Below are positions 1 through 16,168 of a stretch of 20,000 bases of DNA, piece after piece. This stretch comes from an uncultured virus (IMG/VR IMGVR_UViG_3300029945_000007) (Duplodnaviria; Heunggongvirae; Uroviricota; Caudoviricetes): IMG/VR virus record IMGVR_UViG_3300029945_000007; one strand, given 5' to 3'. How positions within the stretch are numbered: the first letter of the stretch is position 1; each line of letters begins with the position of its first letter. The translations under genes were made by a program, and so were the position numbers. Below the pieces are notes generated by a model. The model had not been told where the DNA came from. It ran no database searches and saw only the letters and a program-made list of their open reading frames with translations.

Positions 1-689
1 GTCGGCTCCGGCCAGACAATCGGCGTGCCGTCACGTCGAGCGAACAGGAATAACCGTTCTCGCGTCGTTGCCGCGCCATAGTCCGCCGCGCAGAGAATGC
101 GCCATTCGACCTGATACCCCATTTGTTCGAACGTGCGAATGAACCGCCGCCAGGTGCGGCCAACATGCTTTGGATCAGGGACCAGGTATTGCTCTTGCAC
201 TGGTACGCGCTCGCCGGGAGCGGCGACTGTCTTGTCCAGCTTGATGACTCTGCCGGTGGCCTTGTCGCGCTTGGCGATCAGTGGCCCCCATTGCTGCATT
301 TGCTTGACGTTTTCCATGCTGATACTGCGCGGCAAGACTTGACCTGCCCATCGAGGAAGAACCCACCCCAACCCCCGTATTTTCTTGCTGCGCGGCTGAC
401 CGCCAGCGGCTTGGCTGTGGTGTGTGCAATCCGGACTGCCGTGCAGATGGCCGACAGAGCGGCCTTTGGTCGCTTCTCTCGGGTCGACTTCGAATACGTC
501 TGCGCAGTAGTGCTCAGTTTGCGGGTGATTTGCCATGTGCATACTGATGGCGTCTGCGTCGTGGTTGATGGCAATATCAACGTGACGCCCGAGTGCTCGC
601 TCGATTGCCCCGGACATGCCCCCGCCGCCAGCAAACAAATCAACAATGATTTCGTTGTCGACGCAGAGCGAGAATTGATCTCTTATCAT
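1..689 (-). CDS. C5 cytosine DNA methyltransferase (runs off window edge; absent from ORF track)
   Basis: Manual translation from ATG at 689 (GGAG RBS upstream): MIRDQFSLCVDNEIIVDLFAGGGGMS (motif I FxGxG), HLHGSPDCTHHS (motif IV), MENVK (motif VI). Confidence 0.9.
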   Translation of the reverse strand, partial: MIRDQFSLCVDNEIIVDLFAGGGGMSGAIERALGRHVDIAINHDADAISMHMANHPQTEHYCADVFEVDPREATKGRSVGHLHGSPDCTHHSQAAGGQPRSKKIRGLGWVLPRWAGQVLPRSISMENVKQMQQWGPLIAKRDKATGRVIKLDKTVAAPGERVPVQEQYLVPDPKHVGRTWRRFIRTFEQMGYQVEWRILCAADYGAATTRERLFLFARRDGTPIVWPEP

Positions 690-705
690 CGGATCTCCAG
701 GCATT

Positions 706-727
706 AAAATGCCCGCATGTAGCGGGC
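706..727 (-). terminator. Putative intrinsic terminator after RT
   Basis: GCCCGC-5 nt-GCGGGC stem (711-727) followed by ATTTT on the minus strand, at the RT stop codon. Confidence 0.5.
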
Positions 728-1812
728 TATGGTTTTCGGTAGGTCTTTCTGATGTCCATGCTTATCGACTGACCGCGCCGTCGCAGTGCGTTCGCCAGTC
801 GGCAGCGGTCGTGATGGCTGCTGGTGGCTTGGCCAAGCAATCCGAAATAACTATTGGCTGTTTCGAATAGATCGCCCTCATCGATGTCGACCACTCGTCG
901 TATCGCCTGGCGGTACGTCCGGCGCCGTGTGGTACGTGACCAAGGCTTGATGACCTGGCCGACCATATCGATGCCGCGCGCCACCGGCTGAATGAAAGTT
1001 TTCCTCGGGTTGAGCTGCAGCCCGAGCTCGGCCAGTTTCGTTTCGATCTGCGCCCGCGCCGCCGTGAGCCAGCTCGCGTCCTCATGCAGCAGCACGAAAT
1101 CATCCACATATCGGCAATAATACCGAGCGCCGACGCGGTGCTTGATGTGCTGGTCGAGCGAGTCCAGTAGCACGTTGGCGAAGAACTGGCTGCTGAGGTT
1201 GCCGATTGGCAGACCGTGATGCTCATCAGCGTTGACCAGCCGCTTGTGTGCCGGTACGCGATCAATCAGCGCCGGATCGCCGCGCATCTCGAAATCAGTA
1301 CGCGGGTCGTGAAACAGAATCAGGTCGGCCAGGGCCATCCACCACGGTTCGTGGATACGTTTCGCCAATTGCGCGCGCACCTGGTGCTTGTCGATCGATA
1401 CAAAGAAATTCGACAAATCCATCTTGATATACCAGGCTGGACGGCTCCAGTTCTGCGTTATTGACCTGACGTGATGCTCAAGCCTTTCTGCTGCATATAG
1501 CGTCCCGCGCCCGGGGATACAGGCGCAGGAATCCGCAATGAATCCGCGGTGAAAGCGATCGGAAACACGGTTGTAAAGTAGGTGGTGCACGATTCGATCC
1601 CGGAATTCTGCCGCCCAAACCTCTCTGGGCTTTGGCCGGGTAATGACGAAACAGATCGAGCGGCCCGGATGATAGCGGCCCTCGATCAGTTCGTCGTAAA
1701 GCTCCAGCAGGTTCTGTTCGAGATCGATCTCGAAGGCCAGTGCGGATTTGCTGTTGCGCTTCGCGCGACGGCAATCGAAATAATCCTCGACCAGATCCGA
1801 AAAAGCTGGCAT
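727..1812 (-). CDS. DGR reverse transcriptase
   Basis: GLPIGNLSSQFFAN (DGR-type GxxxSQ), YYCRYVDDFV catalytic motif, KPREVWAAEFRDRIVHH; adjacent to TR and avd. Likely start is ATG 1812 (MPAFSDL); the track start 1881 lies inside TR. Confidence 0.95.
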   Translation of the reverse strand: MPAFSDLVEDYFDCRRAKRNSKSALAFEIDLEQNLLELYDELIEGRYHPGRSICFVITRPKPREVWAAEFRDRIVHHLLYNRVSDRFHRGFIADSCACIPGRGTLYAAERLEHHVRSITQNWSRPAWYIKMDLSNFFVSIDKHQVRAQLAKRIHEPWWMALADLILFHDPRTDFEMRGDPALIDRVPAHKRLVNADEHHGLPIGNLSSQFFANVLLDSLDQHIKHRVGARYYCRYVDDFVLLHEDASWLTAARAQIETKLAELGLQLNPRKTFIQPVARGIDMVGQVIKPWSRTTRRRTYRQAIRRVVDIDEGDLFETANSYFGLLGQATSSHHDRCRLANALRRRGQSISMDIRKTYRKP

Positions 1813-1817
1813 TGATG

Positions 1818-1921
1818 AATCTGCGGACGGCCAGCGCGCGCACCTCGTTGTCCTTGTTGATGTTGTTAGTGTTGCCATCATCGAAGTTCTGTTCGTATGC
1901 GTTGTTAGGGCTGTACTGCGT
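1818..1921 (-). repeat. DGR template repeat (TR)
   Basis: 104 nt that reads TQYSPNNAYEQNFDDGNTNNINKDNEVRALAVRR with 8 AAC codons; aligns without gaps to 2500-2603 and (from 1822) to 3175-3274, with mismatches at TR adenines. Confidence 0.97.
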
Positions 1922-2087
1922 CAATTCGTGCTTGCTACGTCGCCCTGTCGATGCCGAAGCGAACGGCGGGGAAACTGCGCCAGGCCAGCCCGGCTTTACC
2001 GGCGGTACCCCTAGAGCGCATATCGGTGACCTTGTGGGTCAGCGGCACGACCAGATTCAAATCGCACTGGCATGACGGCCTTGACGG

Positions 2088-2444
2088 TCATGCAGCTGGC
2101 GATGCGGACTCATACTTCCTTTTCCAGCCGTTGGCCTGCCGCCCAATACCGCCGAGAAGCGCGACGCCCTGGGCGTACTGCCGCTCGCTGATAATTTTTA
2201 GATCACAGCAAAGCCTGAACATGAAGTTCAGCGATTCAACGCGCTCAACCAGATCGCTCAGATAGGGCACTTTGTTGCGCGCGACATTGGCGCGAAAGAC
2301 CAGGGTCATTAACTCTGAGCATTCGTCATCAAGCTTGTCGCCCCGGCGTTTGTGCTTGCGAGGGATATTACTGACGAGATTAGCAACGAGCATCGTCAGC
2401 GCGTAAACGTCCTTGTAAATCGGTAGGCTGGAATGGAGTGCCAT
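2088..2444 (-). CDS. avd: DGR accessory variability determinant (Avd-like four-helix bundle)
   Basis: 118 aa helical protein, LPIYKDVY...LRLCCDLK-like segment FRLCCDLKIISERQY...IGRQANGWKR; canonical position between target and TR. Confidence 0.88.
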   Translation of the reverse strand: MALHSSLPIYKDVYALTMLVANLVSNIPRKHKRRGDKLDDECSELMTLVFRANVARNKVPYLSDLVERVESLNFMFRLCCDLKIISERQYAQGVALLGGIGRQANGWKRKYESASPAA

Positions 2445-2455
2445 GAGAAAAACCC

Positions 2456-2473
2456 GCGCGGGCAAGCCCGCGC
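2456..2473 (-). promoter_or_regulatory. GC hairpin downstream of VR1 (DGR target-recognition hairpin candidate)
   Basis: GCGCGGGC-AA-GCCCGCGC perfect inverted repeat about 30 nt 3' of VR1, preceded by ATTTAA on the coding strand. Confidence 0.7.
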
Positions 2474-2489
2474 TTAAATGGTTGAATGA

Positions 2490-3101
2490 CTAAATAAACA
2501 ATCTGCGGACGGCCAGCGCGCGCACCTCGCAGTCCTTGTTGATGCTGTAAGTGCTGCCATCATCGAAGTACTGTACGTATGCGTAGCTAGGGCCGTACTG
2601 CGTACTGGTGTGGTGCCAGCCCTTCGGGAGTCGAGCGGCCAGGTTGATTTCGACCAGCGCCAGCTCCCGCCGTGCCGGGAGGTAGAAGTCGCTATACCCG
2701 TCGATATTGAGGCCGTAGGCCCATTCTGCTGCCGGATGATCGTATTCCGACTCAACCAGCGCTTTCGTGTTGGCCATACCGTCCCAGTGACTTTTTGCTC
2801 CGGGTTCGTCTTTGCCGTAACCGCCCCACACAATTTCTGCGATCTGGCCATCGGGATGCTCTGCCGCGATCACGTAATACGGCCTGGAGCCGTCGCCGGG
2901 AACGATCAGCCCGGCATTTCTGCCACCTTGGCCCGGCCAAAGTTCTCCAGGAAACGGAGTGCGGCTCAGTGGCATCGCAAACTCGGCCGCTTGACCGATG
3001 TGTGCCTCGATTATCTCCGCGGAACGAGCCGGGAAGTTGATGACCAAGTCGCCTTTGATAAGCAATTGCTTGATGGACAGCTCAATTTTCGATCCCATCA
3101 T
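2490..3101 (-). CDS. DGR target protein 1 (DUF1566/CLec-like fold, C-terminal VR)
   Basis: DGMANT, DFYLPARREL, and C-terminal STQYGPSYAYVQYFDDGSTYSINKDCEVRALAVRR matching TR. Confidence 0.92.
   Translation of the reverse strand: MMGSKIELSIKQLLIKGDLVINFPARSAEIIEAHIGQAAEFAMPLSRTPFPGELWPGQGGRNAGLIVPGDGSRPYYVIAAEHPDGQIAEIVWGGYGKDEPGAKSHWDGMANTKALVESEYDHPAAEWAYGLNIDGYSDFYLPARRELALVEINLAARLPKGWHHTSTQYGPSYAYVQYFDDGSTYSINKDCEVRALAVRRLFI
2500..2603 (-). repeat. Variable repeat VR1
   Basis: 10 mismatches to TR in 104 nt, all at TR adenines (9 amino-acid changes). Confidence 0.97.
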
Positions 3102-3119
3102 TTACCCTTAAAAAAGCGA

Positions 3120-3139
3120 AACCCGGCTGGCGCCGGGTT
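3120..3139 (-). promoter_or_regulatory. Hairpin downstream of VR2
   Basis: AACCCGGC-TGGC-GCCGGGTT, 8-bp stem and 4-nt loop, 35 nt 3' of VR2. Confidence 0.7.
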
Positions 3140-3154
3140 AAATTGAAAAATGGC

Positions 3155-3766
3155 TTAATGGACGATGTGAATCGTGCGGACGGCCAGCGCGCGCACCTCG
3201 CCGTCCTTGATGATGCCGCAAGTGCTGCCATCACCGACGCTCTGACCGTATGCGTCGTTAGGGCTGTACTGCGTACTGGACATGTAGCAGCCGGGCTCAA
3301 TGGCATGTTCGCCACCCTCTTGGAACGCGGCGATAGTGGTCTGCGCGGGGCTGTCCGGCGTGTAGGGGTATTCGCCCGTCGTCGGGTTGTCGCCGTCGCG
3401 GTAGGTGCAATAGTTCTCGTCGGCGGTCGGCTTGAAGTCGCGGTAGATCATTTCGAGCTGATCGCGTGACGGGACGTGCCAGTCGTCGAACCCGCCGAGG
3501 CGCAGTGCGCGGGCTTCCTTGGCTGCGTCGCTGCCGGCTTCGGCCATTGCATCGGTGTTCGTAGCGCCGTTAATGCAGCTGCGTGCCCCGACGACGTCCT
3601 GTCCATACTCGCCCCACGTGCCGCGCAGTCGGCCATCCTTACCGGCAACGATGACGGCGTACTCTTCGCCATCCACTTTGTAGCGGCGGCCAAGAAAGCC
3701 GCCCTGGAATGCTTCACCGATGGATTTCGGCAGCTCGCTAACTGCTACGTCTTGAATCTTGATCAT
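3155..3766 (-). CDS. DGR target protein 2 (DUF1566/CLec-like fold, C-terminal VR)
   Basis: Paralogous to target 1 (WGEYGQDVVGARS, NGATNT, DWHVPSRDQL); C-terminus STQYSPNDAYGQSVGDGSTCGIIKDGEVRALAVR matches TR. Confidence 0.92.
   Translation of the reverse strand: MIKIQDVAVSELPKSIGEAFQGGFLGRRYKVDGEEYAVIVAGKDGRLRGTWGEYGQDVVGARSCINGATNTDAMAEAGSDAAKEARALRLGGFDDWHVPSRDQLEMIYRDFKPTADENYCTYRDGDNPTTGEYPYTPDSPAQTTIAAFQEGGEHAIEPGCYMSSTQYSPNDAYGQSVGDGSTCGIIKDGEVRALAVRTIHIVH
3175..3274 (-). repeat. Variable repeat VR2
   Basis: 14 mismatches to TR 1822-1921 in 100 nt; 13 at TR adenines, one at a non-adenine (position 3238). Confidence 0.95.
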
Positions 3767-3802
3767 GATTGATACCTATGGGCGTAAAAAAGCCCGCTCA
3801 AG

Positions 3803-4232: not shown

Positions 4233-5132
4233 TCAACCAGTTGCCTCCAGACCACCCAGGGCCTCGATCAGGGCTTCAACCAGCTCTCCAAGCTCCTCGC
4301 TCATCAGGGTGAAGGTGGCCTCGAACAGGCTGGCGCTGTCGTCACCAGCTTGACTTGCCTCGTCCTGCAAGACGTCGAGAAACTGGATGCGCTTGAGCTG
4401 CAGCGTGTCAGTCAGCACAAAGCGCACGCGCTCTTTCCAGATCAGACCTAGGCGTGTCACCTGCTTGCCGGTGGCGATATGTTGGCGGATCTCGTCGGCG
4501 GTCAGGTCGGCGCGCTTGGCGTTGATCACCATGCCGTTTTCGCCGGGGTCGCGCAGCTCAACATCTGAATCAAGTTCGAAGCCTTCCGGCGCTTCGCCCG
4601 CGGCCAGCCAGTCGGTCATCGCGGTGTGCGGCGCCAGTTTTGTGCGCGGCAGGGCCGCCGGGAAGGGCGGAAGCGCCTCGCGCAACTTGCTGACCAGTGC
4701 TTCGGCCTTGCTTGACGTCGCCGTGTCGACCATCAGCCAACCGCGGCGGTTGTCGATGTAGCCAACTTTGCGACTGTCCCGGGTGAATGCCTTGGGCAGC
4801 AAAGCGTCGGCGATCTGTTCTTTAAGGGCCTGTCTTGCCTTGCGCCCGAGCTTGCACCCTTCGCGCCGCTCGATCTCAGCGGCCACCTCATCGCGCTTCT
4901 TGTTGATCACTGCGGGCGGCAACACTTTGTCCTCGCGCTTGAGCGATACCAATAGGCAATCGCGCGCGGCGAACACCGGGCCGTCGACGTGACTGGCCGG
5001 CGTCTGCCAGCCTTCACTGAACCAGCCGAGGCCCATGCATGGTGTGAACGGCTGCTTTTCAAGCCGCTCGGCCAGTTCGTTGCGCCCGATCGTGTCGGGC
5101 AGCTTGTAAAACGATAGTTGCTTAAACCACAT
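4233..5132 (-). CDS. rdgC: Recombination-associated protein RdgC
   Basis: MWFKQLSFY start, KVLPPAVI, LLPKAF, GKQVTRLGLIW, FVLTDTLQLKRIQF, LIEALGG end. Confidence 0.93.
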   Translation of the reverse strand: MWFKQLSFYKLPDTIGRNELAERLEKQPFTPCMGLGWFSEGWQTPASHVDGPVFAARDCLLVSLKREDKVLPPAVINKKRDEVAAEIERREGCKLGRKARQALKEQIADALLPKAFTRDSRKVGYIDNRRGWLMVDTATSSKAEALVSKLREALPPFPAALPRTKLAPHTAMTDWLAAGEAPEGFELDSDVELRDPGENGMVINAKRADLTADEIRQHIATGKQVTRLGLIWKERVRFVLTDTLQLKRIQFLDVLQDEASQAGDDSASLFEATFTLMSEELGELVEALIEALGGLEATG

Positions 5133-5341
5133 CACGCGGCCTCGCGATGGTAAGGATTAACGGTTTCGCCCAGGTAGATGGCGCCGAGAAGCTTGCGCAC
5201 CGGCTTCGGCATGGCGCGGCCACTTTCATAGCGCGAGCCACCTGATTGCGTGACACCGAGCTGATCCCAAAAGTCGGATTGGGACAGCCCGAGTTGGCGG
5301 CGCAGAGTGCGTGGGTCGATGGTTTGGGTTTTGGTTTTCAT
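5132..5341 (-). CDS. XRE-type HTH regulator, RsaL-like
   Basis: LRRQLGLSQSDFWDQLGVTQSGGSRYESGRAMPKPV. Confidence 0.8.
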   Translation of the reverse strand: MKTKTQTIDPRTLRRQLGLSQSDFWDQLGVTQSGGSRYESGRAMPKPVRKLLGAIYLGETVNPYHREAA

Positions 5342-9406: not shown

Positions 9407-9880
9407 TTACTGAATAGATGAATAGGCGACTCTGCGGACGGCTCGAGCACGACTGCTGGTGACCTTGAAGACGCCGTGCTGGGTGCCGCCGCGGAAGTAC
9501 TGCGCCCAGGCGACGCCGCTCGAGCACTGCGCGCAAGACCAGTGCCAGTCGCCGGAGAACAGGCGCTTGAGCTGGGCGAACAGGAATGACTGCTCCTGAC
9601 GCGTCGGCAGCTCCCCACCGATCGATGCTGCCCAGTCCAGTGCCTGCTGCCATCCGCCTTTAAACTCGCCGGGTAGGAGAATCAAGTGGTGCGACGGCTC
9701 GCCAGTCTCGGCATCAAACACCAGGCCCGCATAATCCTCGCCCTCGTGCAGCAGCACGCCGATTACCGTCCGAACCTCGGTGACCGCCGGCTCGGCGAAC
9801 AAGCTGGCGATTAGTTTTTCAATCCGGTGTAGCGGGGCGGACAACTTCACGTCGCCACATTCCAGGGTTGCTATTTGCAT
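9407..9880 (-). CDS. Third DUF1566/CLec-like protein with VR-like C-terminus (remote DGR target candidate)
   Basis: WQQALDWAASIGGELPTRQEQ, WHWS, AWAQYFRGGTQHGVFKVTSSRARAVRR; GGAG RBS before ATG 9880. Confidence 0.85.
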   Translation of the reverse strand: MQIATLECGDVKLSAPLHRIEKLIASLFAEPAVTEVRTVIGVLLHEGEDYAGLVFDAETGEPSHHLILLPGEFKGGWQQALDWAASIGGELPTRQEQSFLFAQLKRLFSGDWHWSCAQCSSGVAWAQYFRGGTQHGVFKVTSSRARAVRRVAYSSIQ

Positions 9881-12210: not shown

Positions 12211-12489
12211 CTACCGCTTTATGTCTCGGTAGAAATTCTCATGAGACCCAACGGCCTCCAGGTAAACCAATCGAATGGAGTCGTCGCGCGTATAACCCAA
12301 CAGCCAGAGTTGGCCTTGACTGCGAAATTTGTAGACCCACAGGGAGGCTAGATCCCCTTTTTTTCGTTCGCCAATATCCGGGTCTGTGCAAACAGCCTCT
12401 ACAGCGCCGTCTACGTCAGCCGCGATGTTGTCCTGCAGCTTTTTATATTGGCGCCCAAACCGCTTGGTCTGTCTCGCTTCGTACTTCAT
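12211..12489 (-). CDS. Type II toxin, RelE/ParE superfamily
   Basis: 92 aa, F.RQYKKL, PDIGERKKGDLASLWVYKF, LEAVGSHENFYRDIKR; ATGA overlap with antitoxin. Confidence 0.9.
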   Translation of the reverse strand: MKYEARQTKRFGRQYKKLQDNIAADVDGAVEAVCTDPDIGERKKGDLASLWVYKFRSQGQLWLLGYTRDDSIRLVYLEAVGSHENFYRDIKR

Positions 12490-12716
12490 GAGGCTTTACG
12501 GCTTCTTGGCTCAAATGGCTGTGCTTGATCCCTTGGCTCAGCCATTGAGGCCATAGACTCAGCAATAAACGATACGGGTAGATCTGGATTGTCTAATGCG
12601 ACCCGGCCAATCGTGGCCCAGAATTCAATCTGCCCAGCAATTGAGCGGTGTTCAGCCGTCGCCTCAGCCCTGGCTTGCTCATAGAGATTTGCGTCAATCC
12701 GCACTGCGACACTCAT
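12486..12716 (-). CDS. ParD-like antitoxin
   Basis: AVRIDANLY..AR....AEHRSIAGQIEFWATIGRVALDNPDLPVSFI. Confidence 0.88.
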   Translation of the reverse strand: MSVAVRIDANLYEQARAEATAEHRSIAGQIEFWATIGRVALDNPDLPVSFIAESMASMAEPRDQAQPFEPRSRKAS

Positions 12717-13687: not shown

Positions 13688-14071
13688 TCAATCGTCCAGC
13701 TTGTCTTGATCTTTCAACTTCATCGCCATTTGCACGATTTCTAGCATTCGCTGCGCGTCATAAGCTGAAAGCTTCGTGGCAAGTTCCTCGGGAGACGATG
13801 CCTCAATGTTTATGGACGGAAATGTATCGGACTTATCTTCCCGCATAGGCCCTTTGTTTAGCGCAAGCCAATCTGACCTCACCTTTAGCGCCGCAGATGC
13901 ACGTACCAAATTATCACCATCAATGCCAGCAGTTGGATTGTTCATCCATTTATAAACCGCGGTTCTTGATAGTTTAATTTGCACTGCCAGCCAATTCGGC
14001 GTGTGCCTTTTACCTGTTGATTCAGTCAGGTCATCTAGCGCCTTCTGAATACGTTGTCCGAGAGTGTTCAT
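13688..14071 (-). CDS. cI-like prophage repressor (HTH, no S24 peptidase domain)
   Basis: MNTLGQRIQKAL...LAVQIKLSRTAVYKW...LKVRSDWLALNKGPM; divergent from cro across the operators. Confidence 0.85.
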   Translation of the reverse strand: MNTLGQRIQKALDDLTESTGKRHTPNWLAVQIKLSRTAVYKWMNNPTAGIDGDNLVRASAALKVRSDWLALNKGPMREDKSDTFPSINIEASSPEELATKLSAYDAQRMLEIVQMAMKLKDQDKLDD

Positions 14072-14074
14072 GTC

Positions 14075-14137
14075 AACCAAGGTTAGCGGATATTTTGTGA
14101 ACCTAGGATTGCATTTAATGCAAACTGTAGTTATCAT
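14075..14137 (+). promoter_or_regulatory. OR operators and pR promoter
   Basis: AACCAAGGTT (14075), AACCTAGGAT (14100), AACTGTAGTT (14123) share AACY-NN-RGTT with OL; TTGCAT (14109-14114), 17 bp, TATCAT (14132-14137). Confidence 0.78.
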
Positions 14138-14143
14138 CATGAA

Positions 14144-14347
14144 ATGAAAAGAGAAACCGTCATGAAATATTTTGGCGGGGGCCGAGGGACCAAAAGCCGC
14201 GTAGCTCGTGTCCTTGGGGTGTCCTCCGCTGCCGTATCCAAGTGGTCTGAAGAGATCCCGGATGGAAGTGCATACAATTTATGCCGCGATTTTCCTGAGC
14301 TTTATAAGCTCGATCAGACTGACCATGACAGTAGGAAGAAGGTTTGA
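14144..14347 (+). CDS. cro: Cro-like repressor
   Basis: MKRETVMKYFGG...KSRVARVLGVSSAAVSKWSEEIP; divergent from cI. Confidence 0.85.
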   Translation: MKRETVMKYFGGGRGTKSRVARVLGVSSAAVSKWSEEIPDGSAYNLCRDFPELYKLDQTDHDSRKKV

Positions 14348-14496
14348 AGGTTGGGAGCCGCAGGGCGGGGAAGCTAAGCGGCTCCCGAGAGGCATGAGCA
14401 AGGGCGTAGCTCACAACCGAAGAGTATGTGAGCAGAAAACTTAAGTCCACATACATGTGCATCAGGTGTGTAGGTCTTACGCAATAGGGGTTTCAG

Positions 14497-14676
14497 ATGG
14501 CAGATATAAGGGATCAAAGGGTTCAGGTGCTTCTCAACGCCGAGGAATACATCGCCCTCCAATCGCTCACTGGTAACGGTGACGATATTAGTCACTCCGC
14601 GTTCTTCCGTAATTACCTGAAAGAGAAGGTGCGTGAAGAGTTGCGTAAGCAGCAAGAGCAGCGGGCGGCCGCATGA
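14497..14676 (+). CDS. Ribbon-helix-helix-like protein in cII position (59 aa; below track cutoff)
   Basis: MADIRDQRVQVLLNAEEYIALQSLTGNGDDISHSAFFRNYLKEKVREELRKQQEQRAAA; ATGA overlap with the next gene. Confidence 0.7.
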   Translation: MADIRDQRVQVLLNAEEYIALQSLTGNGDDISHSAFFRNYLKEKVREELRKQQEQRAAA

Positions 14677-14930
14677 CTAAGCCGTGCGTTTCTGAAACTA
14701 GATTAGTACCGGCACCAGATGGCTCGCATCGATTAGTGATTGATCTGAGCCATCTAGCCGATGCGTATTTCCTGCCCGTTTCAGACGCAGAAGGGCGCCC
14801 ACTTTGCACCATCCAATTTGAGCGGGTCGCTTCACAGAATGCCCACTGCTTAATGGTGGCTAAGCGCGTGACTCTACCCGGTGCCGAGCAGGTTGCACCG
14901 GTTGATATAGACAGGGAGGTGGCGGCGTGA
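14673..14930 (+). CDS. Hypothetical protein
   Basis: Coupled by start/stop overlaps on both sides. Confidence 0.6.
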   Translation: MTKPCVSETRLVPAPDGSHRLVIDLSHLADAYFLPVSDAEGRPLCTIQFERVASQNAHCLMVAKRVTLPGAEQVAPVDIDREVAA

Positions 14931-15175
14931 CTGGTCAACAAAAAGCCCCGCAAGAGCAGGGCGGATTTAAGCCTTACACGGTGAAAATTTCAATTGACCG
15001 CGACGCCCTGATTTCGGGTATTCGGGCCGCTCTCATTGCGGCTGTAAAGGTTGAAAGCGCTGCCCGTCCCGAAGATTTGGAAGATCGGTATGCAGTTAGT
15101 CAGGTTGGGATCTTGGAAAGAGTGTCGAGAGAATCTCCTGTACTCGATCCAGGCTCAGCAGGTGAACCTCTTTAA
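14927..15175 (+). CDS. Hypothetical protein
   Basis: GGAGG RBS and GTGA overlap with the upstream stop. Confidence 0.5.
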   Translation: MTGQQKAPQEQGGFKPYTVKISIDRDALISGIRAALIAAVKVESAARPEDLEDRYAVSQVGILERVSRESPVLDPGSAGEPL

Positions 15176-15487
15176 GGGTCGGCTCTTTCCCAGGCTTTAC
15201 GTCAACGGAAAACGTAATTTTTTCACCGCCGGAAAGTTCAATAACCCGGTTAACTCGAATGGCGGTCCCACTAAGGTTGATGTCGTACTCAAGGGTGCGA
15301 ACAGATAGTTCATTGACTTTCATGACGTTCCAATCGGCGCTGTTTGTGGTTAGAGACAACAGCATAAACCTGATTGGGGCGTCACCCAACAACGGCAGAG
15401 TCTGCGGCCAAGAACGACAGACAGCAAAAAGCCCCGGTCATAGACCTTGCCGGGTCTCGCGGGGCTTAAAACCTACTGAGGGTGATT

Positions 15488-16168
15488 ATGCAAAACACAC
15501 CACTGATAGTCAATAACAACCTAACAATGAGCAGTCGCGAAATCGCTGAATTGTGCGAAGCGAGGCACAACGATGTGGTTGCAACCATTAATAGGTTGTT
15601 TGAAAAAGGACTTTTACGATCAAGTCGTAAAACTCGCCAAGAGGCCACTGGCGGCCGTCCCGTTGATGTTTATGACCTAACTGAACGTGATTCATACTTG
15701 GTTGTTGCTGGATACAGCGACGAAGTCCGCGCACGGATTATTGACCGCTGGCAAGAACTAGAACAGCAAGCGCAATTCAGTATTCCTAAAACTTTTGCTC
15801 AAGCGTTGATGTTGGCGGCCAATCAAGCCGAACAGATCGAACAACAACACGCCGTAATTGAACAGCAACGGCCTGCCGTTGAGTTTGTTGACCACTATGT
15901 ATCAAGTACCGGCAATCGCGGGTTCCGTGAAGTCTGCAAGCTCCTAAACGCCAACGAATCCGAGTTTCGTGAATTTCTCATTGAGAACGGGATTATGTAT
16001 CGCCTTGGCGGGGCATTAACCCCAATGGCCCAACACATGAATACCGGTCGATTTGTAGTAAAGGCCGGCGCATCAGATGGCGGTCATGCATTCAATCAAG
16101 CCAAGTTCACCCCAAAGGGTATTCAGTGGGTGGCAGGCATGTGGATTGCAAGAAAGGTCGCAGCATGA
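15488..16168 (+). CDS. Phage antirepressor (Rha N-terminal plus KilAC C-terminal domains)
   Basis: TMSSREIAEL..RH..V, GYS..VRARIIDRWQELE, IPKTFAQAL, KFTPKGIQWV. Confidence 0.9.
   Translation: MQNTPLIVNNNLTMSSREIAELCEARHNDVVATINRLFEKGLLRSSRKTRQEATGGRPVDVYDLTERDSYLVVAGYSDEVRARIIDRWQELEQQAQFSIPKTFAQALMLAANQAEQIEQQHAVIEQQRPAVEFVDHYVSSTGNRGFREVCKLLNANESEFREFLIENGIMYRLGGALTPMAQHMNTGRFVVKAGASDGGHAFNQAKFTPKGIQWVAGMWIARKVAA

Follow-up and report, generated by a model that had tools for sequence, protein, structure and literature searches.

The 20,000-nucleotide (nt) stretch of DNA analysed here, referred to as the window, is part of the 25,110-nt IMG/VR record IMGVR_UViG_3300029945_000007, which is about 44% complete and derives from a temperate phage in a peat metagenome. 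The window carries a diversity-generating retroelement (DGR), with a reverse transcriptase (RT), the accessory gene avd, and a single template repeat (TR) that serves variable repeats (VR1 and VR2) in two target genes. We have next to no doubt that the element is a DGR and that it is active. The textbook role of a phage DGR is tail-fibre tropism switching. Here the targets are small stand-alone proteins of predicted lectin fold, encoded among recombination and anti-restriction genes, and we propose that they are soluble early variable binders with a non-virion, intracellular role in conflict. We regard this proposal as evenly poised between right and wrong.

Every defining feature of a DGR that could be tested is present in the cassette, which is made up as follows.

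3155..3766, minus strand: target gene 2, 203 amino acids (aa), a stand-alone protein of predicted DUF1566/Lcl_C-type lectin fold (open reading frame (ORF) list, Lcl_C, phrog_4245, AlphaFold2 model)
3171..3274 (read 3274..3171), minus strand: VR2, the final 35 codons of target 2 (comparison with the TR)
3120..3139, minus strand: GC-rich hairpin 3' of VR2, with an 8-bp stem, a 4-nt loop and a T-run after it
2490..3101, minus strand: target gene 1, a 203-aa paralogue with an N-terminal extension of about 55 aa (Lcl_C, phrog_4245)
2500..2603 (read 2603..2500), minus strand: VR1, the final 35 codons of target 1 (comparison with the TR)
2456..2473, minus strand: GC-rich hairpin 3' of VR1, with a 7-bp stem, a 4-nt loop and a T-run after it
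2088..2465, minus strand: avd accessory gene, 125 aa (PF22296, phrog_3206)
1818..1921 (read 1921..1818), minus strand: TR, with 35 adenines, 8 AAC codons and a 25-nt GC-rich 3' element
727..1881, minus strand: DGR reverse transcriptase, longest ORF (RVT_1, phrog_1423)
711..727, minus strand: terminator-like hairpin at the RT stop, the downstream edge of the exchangeable cassette

The RT matches phrog_1423 (5e-108) and RVT_1 (1.1e-17). Its translation is intact, with YVDD and IGNLSSQ visible, which we take to be motifs typical of DGR reverse transcriptases. The closest solved relative is 8ub7_A, a 328-aa RT (5e-34, aligned from query residue 26). Judging from its 328-aa length, it is presumably Brt of Bordetella phage BPP-1. 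The longest RT ORF begins within the TR. A start at 1881 was considered; because relatives and 8ub7_A align only from about residue 13-26, the ATG at 1812 (M24) is likelier, and is probably the true start. Avd is recognised by PF22296 bAvd (2.5e-11, 44.5 bits against a cut-off of 40 bits) and by phrog_3206, 'Avd protein of DGR' (2.8e-21); a phmmer search of Avd against solved structures gave no match. The original prediction was of a complete multi-target DGR with the gene order target2-target1-avd-TR-RT. The order is upheld by the Pfam and PHROGs matches, and all parts are present, with one TR and two VRs.

The repeat itself occurs as a direct repeat in three copies, at 1822-1939, 2504-2621 and 3175-3292. 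Up to GCAGATT, VR1 has 10 mismatches to the TR, all at TR adenines. VR2 has 14 up to GTCCGCA, of which 13 are at TR adenines. These counts had been made before and came out the same on recounting; the 33 adenines originally placed before the GC-rich element became 32 (with 35 in the whole TR). Since adenines account for 35 of the 105 bases of the TR, binomial arithmetic puts the chance of 10/10 at about 2e-5, and of at least 13/14 at about 6e-6. Codon positions 1 or 2 hold 32 of the 35 TR adenines. There are 24 variable codons, and in theory about 1e19 protein variants. The single non-adenine mismatch in VR2 is a T>G at TR position 1885 (window position 3244), which gives F177V. The metagenomic allele P0001, described below, has F at this site; the G in VR2 would be a point mutation fixed after the last retrohoming, or an RT error. 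In the 25,110-nt record, itself about 44% complete, no further match to the TR was found beyond the TR itself, VR1 and VR2.

The 25-nt GC-rich 3' element is identical in the TR, VR1 and VR2, and the sequences diverge right after it. The hairpins lie 27-36 nt past each VR, at 2473-2456 for VR1 and 3139-3120 for VR2; a hairpin was also looked for after the TR, and none was found there. In sequence this is the arrangement of a DGR: the VR ends 3' in a GC-rich element like the initiation of mutagenic homing (IMH) site, and a hairpin follows the VR but not the TR. The VR2 hairpin is a candidate DGR target-recognition element and/or terminator.

Comparison of natural alleles shows that the element is active in nature. 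P0001, a metagenomic protein of the same length as target 2, differs from it at 12 residues. Eleven of these are in TR-adenine codons and one is residue 177; there are no differences in the other 164 N-terminal residues. Further alleles come from two RNA-library runs of one other study, X15 and X16, in the form of contigs and not reads. In a contig of X16, all 11 differences listed inside VR1 are at TR-adenine positions. In a contig of X15 the body of target 1 differs at 2 of 529 bases, and a loose end from X15, compared by eye, differs from the TR at adenines only. The original prediction had named invariant VRs as the mark of an inactive element and had suggested comparing VRs across relatives; because natural VR alleles differ at TR-adenine sites, that objection falls away.

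The RNA-library contigs cover just 725-3802 plus 45 nt of ssb, and their source is a relative that shares only the cassette, so that the missing cover outside the cassette carries no meaning. The relative's contigs leave homology exactly at 725 and 3802, the cassette edges, and the cassette (3802..725, five parts) is therefore exchanged as a module. In this relative, where the cassette lies in different flanks, the RT is about 8% different and the covered parts of the target bodies less than 1%.

Three further IMG/VR contigs (L095, L096 and L097) have a deletion that joins Avd residues 7-63 to RT residues 330-384 (about 2700-3035 of L095), and removes the C-terminal half of avd, the TR and RT residues 1-329. 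Upstream of it the order is RdgC, a T2-like gene and a T1-like gene, and the targets thus persist without the mutator. The VR1-like sequence is identical across the three contigs, a small sample (n=3). An invariant VR1 here against a variable one elsewhere is as expected if diversification needs the element.

Mutagenic retrohoming is a mechanism established for the DGR of Bordetella phage BPP-1, and by inference the window's cassette would work in the same way. The TR would be transcribed, and an RT-Avd complex would copy it into cDNA, misincorporating opposite adenines. The cDNA would then replace the final 35 codons of target 1 or target 2, directed there by the shared 25-nt GC-rich 3' element and by the hairpin found after each VR and absent after the TR. 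The products would be two signal-less single-domain lectin-fold proteins, with a ligand-binding end of about 1e19 possible forms. Judging from position, their synthesis would begin soon after infection or induction, alongside that of the recombination and anti-restriction proteins. They would remain in solution in the cytoplasm and form a library of variable binders for conflicts between phage and host or between phages, and would not be receptor-binding proteins of the virion.

Target 1 and target 2 are 40% identical. Lcl_C matches target 2 at 1.1e-5 (26.1 bits) and target 1 at 7e-4 (20.3 bits), and neither reaches the PF07603 gathering cut-off of 34.9 bits. Both are recognised by phrog_4245 (4.2e-26 for target 2 and 1.5e-24 for target 1), and 25 of 29 homologues have a precomputed PF07603 match. 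On these sequence matches and the model described next, the targets are filed here as distant members of the DUF1566/Lcl_C superfamily, and not as curated members of PF07603.

AlphaFold2, run on an alignment of 30 sequences, predicts target 2 to be one domain (pLDDT 91.2, pTM 0.89). The top Foldseek match of this model in the PDB is 8q4e_A (E 4.4e-3, TM 0.69 on target length), followed by weak C-type-lectin-like matches, and a profile of the target family also has 8q4e as its sole sequence match among solved structures (E 2.2e-4). This is the C-terminal domain of Legionella pneumophila Lcl, with an identity to target 2 of about 16%. The model therefore agrees with the lectin fold for which a structure prediction had originally been proposed. 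Lcl is a secreted collagen-like adhesin and, unlike the window's targets, is not DGR-diversified. A complex of target 2 with target 1, predicted with both as alignments, scored 0.01, which counts neither way. The targets had also been described as small proteins with no evident signal peptide or fibre domain, and two analyses agree with this. No hydrophobic N-terminal segment was seen in a hydropathy scan (maximum 15-residue Kyte-Doolittle mean 0.4 for target 2 and 0.89 for target 1), and the model of target 2 is a single lectin-fold domain with no fibre or anchor domain.

The target family is very large, counting 5,338 cluster representatives at E<=1e-10 and 19,868 when the limit is relaxed to E<=1e-3. 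Among the best 150 of the 19,868 representatives, 69 are at most 260 aa long, 36 have 261-480 aa and 45 are longer. Five of the 36 in the middle class were checked, and have two matched domains each. Among the proteins P0031-P0179 there are polypeptides that hold two to five close relatives of the target domain in tandem, for example two-domain proteins of 417-454 aa; these repeats mirror the tandem target genes of the window. Matches in BFVD include stand-alone phage proteins such as D3 Q9MBK5.

The position of the cassette within the phage genome is the second main source of information on the targets. The other features needed here are the following.

9407..9880, minus strand: third DUF1566 paralogue, about 157 aa from an internal ATG (phrog_4245, 9e-6)
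4233..5135, minus strand: rdgC, upstream context (PF04381, 2.4e-105)
3..704, minus strand: C5 DNA methyltransferase, downstream context, running off the window (PF00145, 2e-21)

The last two confirm the flanks that had been named for the cassette. In the full contig the C5 methylase has 640 aa, and phrog_116 matches it at 1.8e-89 on L006:12-1934. A cI-like gene (13688-14140, minus strand) faces a Cro-like gene (14144-14347, plus strand, phrog_409). Ant/Rha, replication genes, YbcO and RusA follow rightward of the Cro-like gene. In the other direction, leftward and on the cI strand, there are first an anti-repressor-like gene, a RelE-like toxin-antitoxin pair, two helix-turn-helix (HTH) genes and the third DUF1566 paralogue, then Erf, SSB, an exonuclease, a 366-aa protein of unknown function, an HTH gene, RdgC, a 96-aa ORF and the DGR cassette. 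Past the cassette are the 640-aa C5 methylase, small unknown genes and, at the contig end, an excisionase. The cassette is thus on the cI strand, about 10 kb downstream of the cI-like gene. The string is co-oriented with cI and downstream of it, holds recombination genes and ends in an excisionase, as does the leftward arm of a lambdoid phage, and by synteny it is the lambdoid leftward delayed-early arm.

The third paralogue has a C-terminus homologous to the VRs, and the hairpin past it (9403-9385) differs little from that of VR2. The idea that it is a third, live target was rejected: it aligns to the TR with a score of just 17, and no more than 12 nt of its GC element still match the TR. Going by its sequence, it looks like a decayed or former DGR target. 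Gene 57 of Burkholderia phage Magia and 11 remote VRs of relatives lie in comparable positions and remain live.

To see how widespread the layout is, 144 relatives of the RT were found in IMG/VR and the best 80 loci were examined, one of them being a near-identical copy of the window. At least one VR is present in 75 of the 80 loci, and 70 have at least two VRs, with small tandem targets. In four of the five loci that have no VR, the RT is within about 600 nt of the contig start. Altogether the 80 loci have 161 VRs, with 1969 of 2068 mismatches at TR adenines, and 11 VRs are placed 3-9 kb further upstream. The target ORFs have a median length of 162 aa and a maximum of 511 aa; every target detected in the 80 loci is a small protein unlike a virion part.

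The flanks were annotated with Pfam at 19 loci that have long flanks. For 20 loci 349 ORFs had been listed, and the scan took in 300 of these, each at least 90 aa long and lying outside the cassette; the last 49, including all of L061 and L093, fell outside it. No recognisable virion gene was found on the strand run of the cassette at any of the 19 loci, nor in the window. An integrase occurs within 8 kb downstream in 10/19 loci and an S24 repressor upstream in 5/19. In 11/19 the cassette has a gene of DNA-modification type no more than a few kb away; among these genes are those for large ParB_N proteins and for C5 or N6/N4 methylases, PAPS-reductase-like genes and Lar. No effector domain or partner gene is conserved beside the targets at these 19 loci. 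It is worth adding that proteins of 650-914 aa with ParB_N and HTH_ParB adjoin the cassette in 6/19 relatives, lying just downstream of the RT in L036, L037, L052, L055 and L073, and upstream in L070. Some of them end in H-NS, SWIB or FtsK-gamma, and in the window this slot is taken by the C5 methylase.

The same layout is found in cultured phages, namely the Pseudomonas phages Haboob and LPPA56 and Burkholderia phage Magia. In Haboob, of which 3635-50033 of 50033 bases were examined, there is no VR in 24000-50033, which is the whole structural module. In Magia, examined over 1-41001 of 44942 bases, there is no VR in 1-22000, the structural half, and the three VRs present have 8/8, 11/11 and 15/15 mismatches at TR adenines. 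Non-diversified homologues occur in other phages too. In phage D3 the homologue is orf68, which comes first on the leftward side of cI. A target-family homologue of 150-160 aa is also found in virulent jumbo phages of Pseudomonas, of about 287 kb (PA5oct, Cassandra, MIJ3 and others). In PA5oct it sits in the long terminal repeat; we take its locus tag to be gp104, and its early, non-virion status depends on this assumption. In the part of the PA5oct study available, the terminal-repeat genes gp34-gp105 are reported as early, and only gp39, gp48 and gp51 are structural (PMC7318152).

The layout is therefore not new; it is common, and already present in published phage genomes, including the annotation of Magia (MT701587; genes 44-47 and 57). 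The Magia RT is 66% identical in DNA to that of the window. As in the window, small lectin-fold targets, Avd and RT are located between RecT/nuclease and integrase on the repressor strand, and a further small target lies apart from them, close to the head of the string; this third target is live in Magia and decayed in the window. Magia differs in its shorter targets (120-154 aa), its host group and its neighbour genes. Its GenBank record calls genes 47 and 57 'lectin fold domain protein, potential DGR target', and the accessible part of its announcement mentions 'relatively short reading frames' (PMC7883833).

The DGR of BPP-1 (mtd-avd-TR-brt) has target, avd, TR and RT in the same order as the cassette. 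The two are also alike in their adenine-specific VR/TR differences, AAC-rich TR, GC-rich VR 3' element and hairpin after the VR only, and in both the VR forms the C-terminal end of a lectin-fold domain. The single target of BPP-1 is Mtd, the tail-fibre tip protein, whose gene belongs to the structural module. The window's cassette, in contrast, has two tandem 203-aa stand-alone DUF1566/Lcl_C-type proteins in a recombination/integration arm, and no structural target was seen. Of the marks of an Mtd-like virion receptor-binding protein, a fibre or anchor domain is absent from the single-domain model of target 2, and structural neighbours were found neither in the window nor in any of the 19 annotated relatives.

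Short targets of this type have been described. In the portion of Wu et al. 2018 that was available, short DUF1566-only DGR targets make up category 'd' / CLec2, with Legionella LdtA as an example; about half of category 'd' are short proteins with DUF1566 alone, and, as in the window, the VR overlaps a weak DUF1566 match (PMC5758913). LdtA is a surface lipoprotein, whereas the window's targets have no lipobox or signal-like segment. The word 'early' does not occur in the text of Wu et al., and no phage early-operon position is discussed there (PMC5758913). According to the accessible sections of Benler et al. 2021, Quimbyvirus has a second, non-structural DGR target in a defence-related island, for which a conflict role was inferred (PMC8008677). 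This target resembles those of the window in being outside the structural module and beside DNA-modification and counter-defence genes. In Quimbyvirus, however, a structural target is diversified too, the lineage infects Bacteroides, and the target architecture is different; in the clade of the window, all targets detected at the 80 loci are small and non-structural. Roux et al., in the part available, class viral DGR targets as structural or unknown only (PMC8144416). The literature searched, which did not extend to subscription journals and bioRxiv supplements, yielded no paper in which stand-alone DUF1566 DGR targets from early regions of phages had been given a function by experiment.

On the basis of their position among recombination and anti-restriction genes, their lack of export or anchor features, and the early-placed homologues in D3 and PA5oct (the PA5oct gene number being assumed), the targets may have a non-virion role inside the cell, and we give this about the same chance of being right as of being wrong. 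A number of observations weigh against it. The original claim of an early (pL) operon stands as regards a cI-strand string between recombination genes and methylase/xis, but the promoter scan gave 7 promoter-like sites against 8.2 expected, which is not above chance, and no pL was assigned. The RNA-library contigs over the cassette show neither a start nor a strand, and cannot prove transcription. Because the contig is about 44% complete, the phage could have a further, structural target. The signal-peptide test was a plain hydropathy scan only, and lysis could release a cytoplasmic protein to act outside the cell. Finally, the domain family is mostly extracellular. Its closest solved relative is the C-terminal domain of an adhesin, 81 of the best 150 family representatives exceed 260 aa, and among the proteins longer than 260 aa that were scanned, Lcl_C is present in 16/16 and seven add Ig-like, fn3, Laminin_G, Big or cadherin-like domains. 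In BFVD, S74, collagen and tail-fibre proteins are among those that match at their C-termini.

These family relationships also favour a role outside the cytoplasm, either as virion accessory receptor-binding or decoration proteins or as soluble lectins released at lysis. Such lectins would attach to glycans or proteins of cell surfaces and might, for instance, mask receptors on debris or neighbouring cells; DGR variation would then track surface diversity as in BPP-1. Small C-lectin second targets have in fact been read as receptor-binding proteins in the accessible part of Egorov et al. (10.1101/2024.10.15.618418). We consider such a role rather doubtful for the window's targets, which lack a signal-like segment and any domain for anchoring or fibre attachment. 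Their genes are far from structural modules, as in 19/19 annotated relatives, and the structural halves of Haboob and Magia are free of VRs. Alternatively, they could be moron-like genes expressed in the lysogen, whose products are diversified sensors or blockers of superinfecting phages or other invaders and benefit the host. In favour of this, a terminator-like hairpin of its own stands after each target, the cassette is transferred as a module into differing surroundings, and the D3 homologue is directly downstream of cI, the slot that rexAB occupies in lambda. Analogous conflict systems with DGR-diversified sensors are published for cellular DGRs, in the parts of those papers available (PMC10907252, PMC7159879). 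The promoter scan shows no evident promoter before the targets, whose genes lie close together in a run of one orientation 10 kb from cI, with no conserved effector domain or partner gene beside them, and we think expression in the lysogen distinctly unlikely. Least probable by far is an inactive relic with old VR/TR differences. It would account for the non-adenine mismatch in VR2 and for the deletion derivatives without TR and RT in three related contigs, but the RT ORF with its YVDD is intact, and alleles that differ only at TR-adenine codons, on identical or near-identical gene bodies, contradict it.

Within the intracellular reading, a role in counter-defence is plausible. A more specific form of it, in which the DGR gives temperate phages of this widespread clade an antibody-like repertoire of small cytoplasmic lectin-fold binders that neutralise variable host-defence or rival-phage proteins and are expressed with the anti-restriction genes, we hold to be unlikely. 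If true, it would be the first hypermutation-based counter-defence system, and the tandem copies, the remote copy and the homologues in D3 and the jumbo phages would be one early host-takeover family. With intracellular targets of any kind, programmed hypermutation would reach beyond adsorption into the arms race inside the cell, and naturally evolvable small binder scaffolds would become available. If the targets are instead released or virion-associated lectins, the cassette is an ordinary variant of BPP-1-type tropism control. Because cultured members exist (Haboob, LPPA56 and Magia), the question of the targets' role is directly testable.

Two minor observations may be added. The RelE-like toxin (phrog_1213, 1.7e-14) and its upstream 76-aa partner (phrog_16013), at 12211-12716 on the minus strand, are located in the immunity region, which is low in GC, 48-51% as against about 58% elsewhere. 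Minus-strand ORFs at 14160-15392 have no family matches and overlap small plus-strand ORFs (14144-15516). They are probably spurious, and the rightward operon probably starts in this stretch, whose first small plus-strand ORF is the Cro-like gene at 14144-14347.

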